Sequence record: MH992123.1
Length of the DNA stretch: 64,000 nucleotides
Strand: one strand, 5' to 3'
Source: Escherichia phage OLB145
The position numbers and the translations under genes were made by a program. Below are positions 3,975-4,529 of the stretch, piece after piece (position 1 is the stretch's first letter; each line of letters starts with the position of its first letter). The notes beneath the pieces are model-generated. The model had not been told where the DNA came from. It did no database searches and was given only the letters and a program-made list of their open reading frames with translations.

Positions 3975-4152
3975 ACAATGCAAATGTGGTAAAGGCTATG
4001 TATCCCAATGGGATGGTAAGTGTGGTCATTGTAGAACCAAGAAAGAACAACGTGACCATGAATATGCACTTCAAGAAATGATTGTACCTGTTGAGAATTT
4101 AGGTATGGCTCCACTTGAGGCTTACAAATATATAAGGAGATTATGCAAATGA
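3967..4152 (+). CDS. Small Cys-rich protein (zinc-ribbon-like, 61 aa)
   Basis: Track ORF 3952..4152 starts at TTG; ATG at 3967; CKCGKG...CGHC pattern. Confidence 0.35.
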   Translation: MDKQCKCGKGYVSQWDGKCGHCRTKKEQRDHEYALQEMIVPVENLGMAPLEAYKYIRRLCK

Positions 4153-4529
4153 AAGAAGTATTCGTATTTGGTTCTAACCTTGCTGGTGTACATGGTGCTG
4201 GTGCTGCAAAGACAGCATATAAGAAATATGGAGCCAGATGGGGTAAAGGGCATGGTCATTATGGGGACAGCTATGCCATTCCCACTAAAGATACCAATAT
4301 CAAAACGATGGCTATTGAAGACATTCGTACATTTGTAAATGCCTTCATTGTCTATGCTGCTAATCATCCAGAACTTAACTTTAAAGTTACTCGTGTAGGT
4401 TGTGGATTAGCTGGTATTGATGATTCTGTTATGGCCTCTATGTTTAAAAATGCCACTGGTAACTGTTCCTTTGACTTAGCATGGAAAAGTTACTTAGGGG
4501 ATGATTTCAACTACTGGGGAACGTTCTAA
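4149..4529 (+). CDS. Hypothetical protein with glycine-rich FGSNLAGVHGAGAA motif (126 aa)
   Basis: AAGGAG RBS at good spacing for the second ATG (4149); the motif looks like a Rossmann-type nucleotide-binding loop but I cannot place the family. Confidence 0.5.
   Translation: MKEVFVFGSNLAGVHGAGAAKTAYKKYGARWGKGHGHYGDSYAIPTKDTNIKTMAIEDIRTFVNAFIVYAANHPELNFKVTRVGCGLAGIDDSVMASMFKNATGNCSFDLAWKSYLGDDFNYWGTF

Follow-up and report, generated by a model that had tools for sequence, protein, structure and literature searches.

N4-like phage gp14 as a predicted compact macrodomain and possible early ADP-ribosyl hydrolase

What is the small early protein with two glycine-rich loops that N4-like phages encode just ahead of their RNA polymerase II (RNAP II) genes, and what might it do to ADP-ribose? 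We examined this question in a 64,000-nucleotide stretch of DNA from Escherichia phage OLB145 (sequence record MH992123.1), hereafter the window, in which the open reading frame (ORF) at 4149..4529 is, by sequence, gp14 of phage N4. For the majority of the early genes of N4, a classic model phage, no function has been assigned. Judged from its predicted structure, gp14 is a stand-alone, trimmed-down macrodomain, closest to the ALC1-like (TARG1/DarG/BT1257/SCO6735) class. The reading that we favour, with somewhat more confidence than doubt, is that gp14 may serve as an early ADP-ribosyl hydrolase, a counter-defence eraser directed against host ADP-ribose-based defence. A first-pass annotation, made from the letters of this DNA, had singled out the same ORF and two glycine-rich motifs, and we found all three where it had placed them. 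The gene and its motifs are as follows.

4149..4529, + strand: gp14 coding sequence, 126 amino acids (aa) plus stop; predicted compact single-domain macrodomain of the A1S_2505 family
4134..4139, + strand: Shine-Dalgarno sequence AAGGAG of gp14, read from the sequence, 9 nucleotides (nt) before ATG 4149
4167..4208, + strand: loop 1, FGSNLAGVHGAGAA, residues 7-20; end of strand 1 and predicted phosphate-binding glycine loop
4281..4289, + strand: P45-T46-K47 motif, with K47 aligned to the catalytic Lys position of TARG1 (K84) and DarG (K80)
4395..4421, + strand: loop 2, VGCGLAGID, residues 83-91; predicted second diphosphate/ribose loop, with Ala88 in place of TARG1 Asp125

The gene runs from ATG 4149 to the TAA at 4527-4529, and its protein reads MKEVFVFGSNLAGVHGAGAAKTAY...TRVGCGLAGIDDS... 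Starting at an alternative in-frame ATG, at 4143, would lengthen the protein by two residues, but that ATG lies just 3 nt from the AAGGAG; we preferred ATG 4149 because of its Shine-Dalgarno spacing (9 versus 3 nt), and the N4 annotation starts gp14 at the equivalent position. The window is an Enquatrovirus genome that begins at or near genome position 1. Between 3000 and 7000 it shares 99.8% identity with Escherichia phage vB_EcoP_3HA13 and 98.5% with N4, at matching coordinates.

Sequence alone cannot place the gp14 family, so structure comparison was needed. The AlphaFold2 model of gp14, built from 53 homologues, is confidently predicted (predicted local distance difference test, pLDDT, 94.2; predicted template modelling score, pTM, 0.89) and shows the three-layer alpha/beta/alpha fold with a mixed central sheet that characterizes macrodomains, in a protein whose 126 aa fall below the usual macrodomain length of 150-190 aa. 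The top 15 Foldseek matches to the model comprised BT1257, DarTG, TARG1, SCO6735 and DarG, together with the designed hydrolase OSH55, which clusters with them. Those members of this ALC1-like class that have been assayed hydrolyse ADP-ribose. The first-pass annotation had read the loop as part of a Rossmann-like fold; a Rossmannoid topology is not the best structural match, and the model points to a macrodomain instead. The profile and structure-based homology searches that it had proposed as a check led to the macrodomains, with ALC1-like structures nearest, and returned no clear homology to a structural or housekeeping protein, which it had named as the result that would count against it.

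In the model and in the alignment to TARG1, both glycine-rich segments take the place of the ligand loops of an ADP-ribose-binding macrodomain fold, so that the earlier suggestion of an ADP-ribose-type loop holds up. Loop 1 contains the invariant residues S9, N10, G13, H15 and G18. By hhalign, its H15-G-A-G-A-A20 aligns with M40-G-A-G-I-A45 of TARG1, its SN10 with the VN of AdfM (gp104 of phage PhiKZ) and its HGAGAAK with AdfM MGAGLAK, and the position of N10 corresponds to DarG N22. In a hidden Markov model (HMM) alignment to PDB 4j5r, P45-T46-K47 falls on TARG1 I82-T83-K84 (aiPTKd versus lITKK). Loop 2 aligns in the same manner, G84-C-G-L-A88 with TARG1 G121-C-G-L-D125 (riGCGLag versus RIGCGLDR in TARG1 and RIGCGLAGG in BT1257). 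These profile alignments are consistent among themselves and fit the fold.

We counted conservation over 80 viral and 80 bacterial loci, the best-matching loci of each collection. S9, N10, G13, H15, G18, T46, G84 and N105 are invariant in both sets (80/80 viral, 80/80 bacterial), G84, G86 and A88 are at least 99% conserved, and both loops are at least 96% conserved, making the glycine-rich segments the most conserved parts of the family. The TARG1-type Lys/Asp dyad is incomplete in gp14, with Ala88 at the Asp125 position in 159 of 160 loci. Lys is present at position 47 in all 80 viral loci and in 136 of 154 aligned family representatives. By alignment, the phage branch thus has a DarG-like Asn/Lys arrangement; in DarG, K80 and N22 are the most important residues (N22 second), and the Lys is retained without the Asp of TARG1 (PMC5179494; PMC9411070).

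The family is large. We found 5633 homologues of gp14 at E<=1e-3 in a set of 5.8 billion proteins, and 5034 representatives at the 50% identity level; with thousands of homologues, gp14 is a real gene and not a chance ORF. Family members occur in 376 phage genome records, most of them N4-like podoviruses of Escherichia, Klebsiella, Pseudomonas, Achromobacter, Erwinia, Rhizobium and roseobacters, with jumbo Pseudomonas phages, Rhodobacter phages and Bordetella BMP-1 as minor carriers, and the gene is kept across Schitoviridae, in most members. gp14 matches the NCBIfam model NF049995 (A1S_2505 family phage non-structural protein) with 151.9 bits against a cutoff of 45, over model positions 1-109 of 109, and PHROG 2072 ("unknown function") over its full length (E 1.7e-56). 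The sole Pfam match, 5-FTHF cyclo-ligase at E 0.12, was judged to be noise.

GenBank labels for the family vary from hypothetical to macrodomain protein (Bas69), ADP-ribosylglycohydrolase (AL25, KP8), Poa1p family and ADP-ribosyltransferase (Rhodobacter phages). The last of these is probably wrong, since the fold points to a protein that binds or hydrolyses ADP-ribose; the label is attached to stand-alone homologues in the Rhodobacter phages RcZahn (L011:2471-2860) and RcAqua (L012:2501-2869). The name gp14 is also used in the N4-like phage LUZ7, where it denotes Drc, an unrelated protein. A macrodomain assignment already exists in these scattered annotations and in an I-TASSER model of the family namesake A1S_2505 on TARG1 (PMC6978653), and viral macrodomains have already been surveyed as a group. 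gp14 is a divergent macrodomain and not a new kind of protein, and with such labels already in place its novelty is modest.

Domain fusions and gene neighbourhoods point in a common direction. Among 64 longer representatives, the gp14-like domain is fused to YAcAr-type SLOG (5), NADAR (4), DprA-like SLOG (2), WYL_2 (2), DUF4326, an Acb2/Tad1 hairpin and CsrA, and one protein, P0253, is a triple fusion of NADAR, the gp14-like domain and DUF4326. Bacterial fusions join it to ADP-ribosylglycohydrolase (5), DUF1810 (3), NADAR, NUDIX and helix-turn-helix (HTH) domains. In the neighbour censuses, which covered the 80 best-matching loci per collection, the bacterial genes lie near genes for VWA (8), NUDIX (4), NrtR (3) and ADP-ribosylglycohydrolase (3) proteins. 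Giant crAss-like polyvalent proteins (BFVD) contain the domain as well, together with a helicase or ART-PolyVal domain. Nearly all partners with a known role belong to the NAD+/ADP-ribose network. This bias agrees with a comparative analysis that describes viral Macro, NADAR, SLOG and DUF4326 as co-occurring ADP-ribose-processing modules, used early against host immunity (PMC9503650). Among viral loci, RNAP II adjoins the gene in 36 of 80 IMG/VR loci, the N4-like ones, and in other phages it mostly has genes of DNA replication and recombination beside it, a setting that says little. An apparently conserved NADAR neighbour (25 loci) was rejected as a single-linkage chain of DUF4326 and NADAR proteins joined by fusions; NADAR is truly a neighbour in no more than 3 of the 80 loci.

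Some observations on these neighbourhoods stand apart. Many of the bacterial family members (loci L093-L172, mostly Bacteroidales) are the C-terminal domain of proteins of 340-465 aa, the N-termini of which include ADP-ribosylglycohydrolase, DUF1810, NADAR or HTH domains. VWA proteins are the commonest neighbours of bacterial gp14-like genes (8/148), and the window itself carries a pair of genes conserved in N4, a MoxR-type ATPase gene (9940..10998, + strand) followed by a gene for a DUF2201 protein (11166..12308, + strand) with a metallopeptidase-like N-domain (E 6e-86) and a VWA-like domain. On a 114-kb phage contig (L007), the gp14 homologue lies beside rIIA/rIIB-like genes, with an RtcB RNA ligase about 2 kb downstream (L007:8619-10061), which hints that the context in some lineages is RNA repair.

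Fold, loops, polar residues at DarG positions and fusion partners converge, and from them we infer that gp14 binds, and likely hydrolyses, an ADP-ribose conjugate. Confidence differs between the parts of this reading. Binding of ADP-ribose is highly probable and hydrolase activity is likely; a counter-defence role is about evenly balanced, and thymidine-ADP-ribose in DNA is a tentative choice of substrate that we regard as rather doubtful. In the mechanism we propose, loop 1 (G8-S9-N10...G13-x-H15-G16-A17-G18-A19-A20) and loop 2 (G84-C85-G86-L87-A88-G89) would clamp the diphosphate and distal ribose of ADP-ribose, and Asn10 and Lys47 would occupy the sites of DarG's two most important catalytic residues. 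Given loops placed on ADP-ribose and these two residues, gp14 would most likely cut the bond between C1'' of ADP-ribose and the attached group. Sharing the early transcription unit with RNAP II, and coupled in translation to gp12, it might strip ADP-ribose placed by host systems on phage nucleic acid. The most concrete target would be thymidine-ADP-ribose on single-stranded DNA, written by DarT2-type toxins; ADP-ribose on proteins may be an alternative target. The earlier proposal of a modifying enzyme came near the mark in expecting an enzyme, but the evidence favours an eraser (an ADP-ribosyl hydrolase) and not a writer.

The early context of gp14 is given by gp8-gp16, a same-strand block in which it lies with the following features.

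2523..2548, + strand: terminator-like hairpin at the upstream end of the gp8-gp16 block, 11 bp stem and T-run
2785..3120, + strand: gp9, second DUF4326-like protein of the same early block (Pfam DUF4326, E 2.8e-4, under the cutoff)
3606..3974, + strand: gp12, DUF4326 protein with a C-F-C-Y-P-K-P-C-H motif (Pfam PF14216, E 1.5e-22)
3967..4152, + strand: gp13, 61 aa, Cys-rich (CxC...CxxC) and zinc-ribbon-like, from sequence and N4 annotation
4604..5413 and 5425..6675, same strand as gp14: RNAP II subunit genes (Pfam RNA_pol), directly downstream of gp14 and closing the block
6681..6706, + strand: terminator-like hairpin that follows RNAP II and bounds the block downstream; an annotated terminator in phage AL25

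The two hairpins are the region's only strong terminator-like hairpins. gp14 thus sits inside a hairpin-bracketed block directly upstream of both RNAP II subunit genes, which agrees with its initial description as an early gene just before RNAP II. Between gp14 and the first RNAP II gene there is another hairpin (4547..4563, + strand), with a 7-bp stem and a 3-nt loop (AAGCTGC-TCC-GCAGCTT) followed by TTGG; we rejected it as a terminator, its stability being no better than that of shuffled sequence (z = -1.4). The start of the RNAP II large subunit differs among records, with 416 aa from ATG 5425 in AL25 versus 404 aa in N4 and Bas69, which start it at the equivalent of 5461.

Immediately upstream, the first 8 nt of gp13 lie within gp12, and the TGA that ends gp13 runs into the gp14 ATG in a 4-nt overlap (ATGA). 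On account of these overlaps, gp12, gp13 and gp14 are probably translationally coupled and translated as one unit. gp12 is the likely functional partner: in 16 of 36 N4-like IMG/VR loci, versus 2 of 44 other loci, the macro gene is preceded on its own strand by a DUF4326 gene. gp13 is found next to the macro gene in just 3 of 80 loci and is kept only in close N4 relatives; a fourth gp13 match, in L034, is a DUF4326 ORF about 1.9 kb upstream. A Paraburkholderia N4-like contig (L008) repeats the overlapping order of DUF4326, small ORF and macro gene, and the small ORF in its gp13 slot (48 aa, L008:5858-6004) is unrelated to gp13. The product of gp9 converges on the gp12 profile upon iteration and has no C-F-C-Y-P-K-P-C-H motif; with the Cys/His motif missing, gp9 is probably a degenerate DUF4326 paralogue. 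The retrievable homologues of gp12 were all at least 89% identical, and its AlphaFold2 model (pLDDT 53) was discarded. A search of PDB sequences with gp12 gave no match, and PADLOC reported nothing for gp14, gp12, gp13 or gp9.

A number of results weigh against reading gp14 as an early ADP-ribosyl hydrolase. phmmer and profile searches against PDB sequences gave E values of about 0.2-1, and with the more diverse profile A2 the macro matches left the top ranks. The sequence links found by hhalign are weak (TARG1, E 9e-5 with a probability of 60%; PhiKZ AdfM, E 3e-4 with a probability of 39%), and the residue equivalences come from such low-probability profile alignments and a predicted structure. 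The Pfam scan of gp14 gave no Macro-family match (PF01661 or relatives) at E<=1; PhiKZ gp104, the control, matches Pfam Macro at E 5e-7. At position 47, the bacterial loci have Lys in 13, Met in 66 and Arg in 1 of 80, and A1S_2505 has Leu. Since Lys47 is not family-wide, the mechanism may not be Lys-based across the family, as in SCO6735, and the pattern suggests that the chromosomal Met47 members differ from the phage branch in mechanism or role. DarT was not among the top 25 neighbour families of the 80 bacterial loci, and the bacterial company of the family (NrtR, Nudix, ADP-ribosylglycohydrolase), like its SLOG and DUF4326 partners, is no less compatible with small-molecule ADP-ribose metabolism than with DNA repair. 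In the literature we found no biochemical or genetic work on N4 gp14 or any family member, and no data on the sensitivity or resistance of N4 to DarTG2.

The last of these genomic points leads to the alternative that gp14, together with gp12 as a predicted phosphatase-like protein, degrades soluble ADP-ribose derivatives and not ADP-ribosylated macromolecules. Candidate substrates would be products, toxic or used as signals, of host defences based on NADase, TIR or ADP-ribosyltransferase (ART) enzymes, such as ADP-ribose-1''-phosphate, O-acyl-ADP-ribose or cyclic ADP-ribose isomers. The translational coupling of gp12, gp13 and gp14, the DUF4326 gene upstream in 16 of 36 N4-like loci, the P0253 triple fusion and the fusions to SLOG and the Acb2/Tad1 hairpin would all follow naturally from such a role, as would the bacterial neighbours NrtR and Nudix, which act in free ADP-ribose metabolism, and the same division of labour has been proposed for viral Macro, NADAR, SLOG and DUF4326 (PMC9503650). 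However, the biochemical role of DUF4326 is itself a prediction, and DUF4326 is absent from 42 of the 44 non-N4-like phage loci with a gp14-like domain. The proteins nearest to gp14 in structure (DarG, TARG1 and SCO6735) have macromolecule-linked ADP-ribose as their substrate, none of the 80 viral copies has lost the DarG-type Asn or Lys, and the phage NADARs tested are all DNA de-ADP-ribosylases (PMC11825919). Soluble substrates therefore seem to us a somewhat unlikely answer, and yet the evidence does not separate the two readings; we rank the macromolecular eraser slightly higher on account of these structural relatives and of a Lys47 kept specifically in phages.

The first-pass annotation had also raised a signalling-molecule sponge, that is, a non-catalytic protein or sensor that captures ADP-ribose-derived immune signals stoichiometrically, like Tad1, Tad2 and Acb2. 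An early gene for a small protein, one relative fused to an Acb2/Tad1 hairpin and the missing TARG1 Asp125 are compatible with this idea, but the polar residues at catalytic positions (N10, H15, T46, K47 and N105) are strictly conserved in viral copies, including Asn10 and Lys47 in 80/80, the nearest relatives are enzymes, those nearest in structure being hydrolases, the fusion partners are enzymes too (NADAR, ADP-ribosylglycohydrolase, Nudix), and a Tad2-like domain is already present in another protein of the phage, at 34024..34506. Together, these make a pure sponge role quite improbable. The Tad2-like protein is encoded on the + strand by a 160-aa ORF (Pfam PF11195, E 8e-24; "hypothetical" in Bas69) adjoining the virion RNA polymerase gene (34544..45064, - strand), and its product is a candidate sponge for Thoeris ADP-ribose-derived signals. 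We give equally little credence to a role in the phage's own regulation, in which gp14 would erase phage-directed ADP-ribosylation, made by an N4-encoded or virion-delivered ART on proteins such as RNA polymerase or the single-stranded DNA-binding protein, as an early-to-middle switch. The gene does adjoin the middle RNA polymerase genes, an "N4-like" ART family is named as frequent in phages (PMC9503650), and gp14-like domains occur in polyvalent proteins with an ART-PolyVal domain; but no ART is annotated in an N4-type genome, Pfam found none in the 26 window proteins scanned, a scan that was not exhaustive, and we found no support in the literature.

The macrodomain assignment, TARG1/DarG-like in kind, gives one N4 early gene a directly testable activity, and it does so for a family that is large (>5000 clusters, 376 phages, most Schitoviridae) yet lies outside Pfam and is inconsistently labelled in GenBank. 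N4 exposes unusual amounts of single-stranded DNA, both in the hairpin promoters of its virion RNA polymerase and in the single-stranded templates of RNAP II, and single-stranded DNA is the substrate of DarT-type ADP-ribosyltransferases. A broader and more speculative proposal, which we consider unlikely as it stands, is that the gp14/A1S_2505 clade evolved independently as a second family of macrodomain erasers in phages, near-universal in Schitoviridae owing to this exposed DarT-type substrate. gp14, possibly with the DUF4326 protein, would then keep early and middle templates free of ADP-ribose and might erase a host mark not yet described. If gp14 proved active in this way, a macro clade distinct from AdfM would do the same anti-DarTG2 job in many more phages, and the recurring DUF4326-macro-NADAR-SLOG association would gain a function. 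If it did not, gp14 would simply be one more ADP-ribose-handling accessory gene.

Set against known systems, gp14 has neither the sequence nor the fold of a known sponge family (Tad1, Tad2 or Acb2), with no Pfam match to them and a predicted macro fold. Yeast Poa1p, an ADP-ribose-1''-phosphate phosphatase (PDB 6lfq) whose name appears among the GenBank labels, is 9% identical to gp14 and gives no sign of common catalytic residues. AdfN, the phage NADAR anti-DarT1 factor (for example T4 30.3), offers a functional analogy as an orphan antitoxin-like eraser with an unrelated fold; it acts specifically on guanine-ADP-ribose, and NADAR is among the commonest fusion partners of gp14-like domains. 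As noted above for the alternative substrates, every phage NADAR tested is a DNA de-ADP-ribosylase (PMC11825919).

Human TARG1 (OARD1, C6orf130; PDB 4j5r, 4j5s, 2l8r), a terminal ADP-ribose glycohydrolase, shares GAG(I/A)A, (I/P)TK and RIGCGL with gp14 and is the only known macrodomain with detectable sequence-profile similarity to it (hhalign E 9e-5). Its catalytic Asp125 is Ala88 in gp14, its N-terminal strand or strands are missing, and His15, Ser9 and Asn105 of gp14 are family-specific invariants, unlike TARG1. DarG, the antitoxin of DarTG2 (PDB 5m3i, 5m3e, 7omu), is about 18% identical; gp14 has 126 aa versus about 150 aa for the DarG macro domain, does not conserve DarG W83, and has neither the C-terminal DarT-binding domain nor an adjacent DarT gene, and no DarT is annotated in an N4-type genome. 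gp14 gave no match to the PADLOC DarG HMM at E<=1 (AdfM, 4e-39). We accordingly rejected membership of gp14 in the DarG/AdfM family, given no DarG HMM match, no DarT partner and no second domain; gp14 may nevertheless work like DarG. AdfM (PhiKZ gp104) is, like gp14, a stand-alone phage macrodomain, and has PTKD and the (V/S)N...GAG loop in common with it. Unlike gp14, it belongs by sequence to the DarG family proper (E 4e-39 with PADLOC DarG and 5e-7 with Pfam Macro), and it enters the phage nucleus, a structure that N4 does not have. Reported in 2026 as the first phage macrodomain shown to defeat DarTG2, this anti-DarT2 factor provides the experimental precedent for a phage macrodomain that erases DarT2 marks (PMC13309987). 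The BT1257/SCO6735 subgroup (PDB 2fg1, 2afc, 5e3b) provides the top Foldseek match and an identical loop 2 (RIGCGLAGG); it carries a long "mobile loop" and Gln in place of the Lys, whereas gp14 has Lys and is shorter (HMM E ~0.8). SCO6735 removes thymidine-ADP-ribose and rescues cells from DarT, and reversal of thymidine-linked ADP-ribosylation is described as the unifying activity of the ALC1-like class (PMC9411070), the class to which the predicted structure of gp14 is closest.

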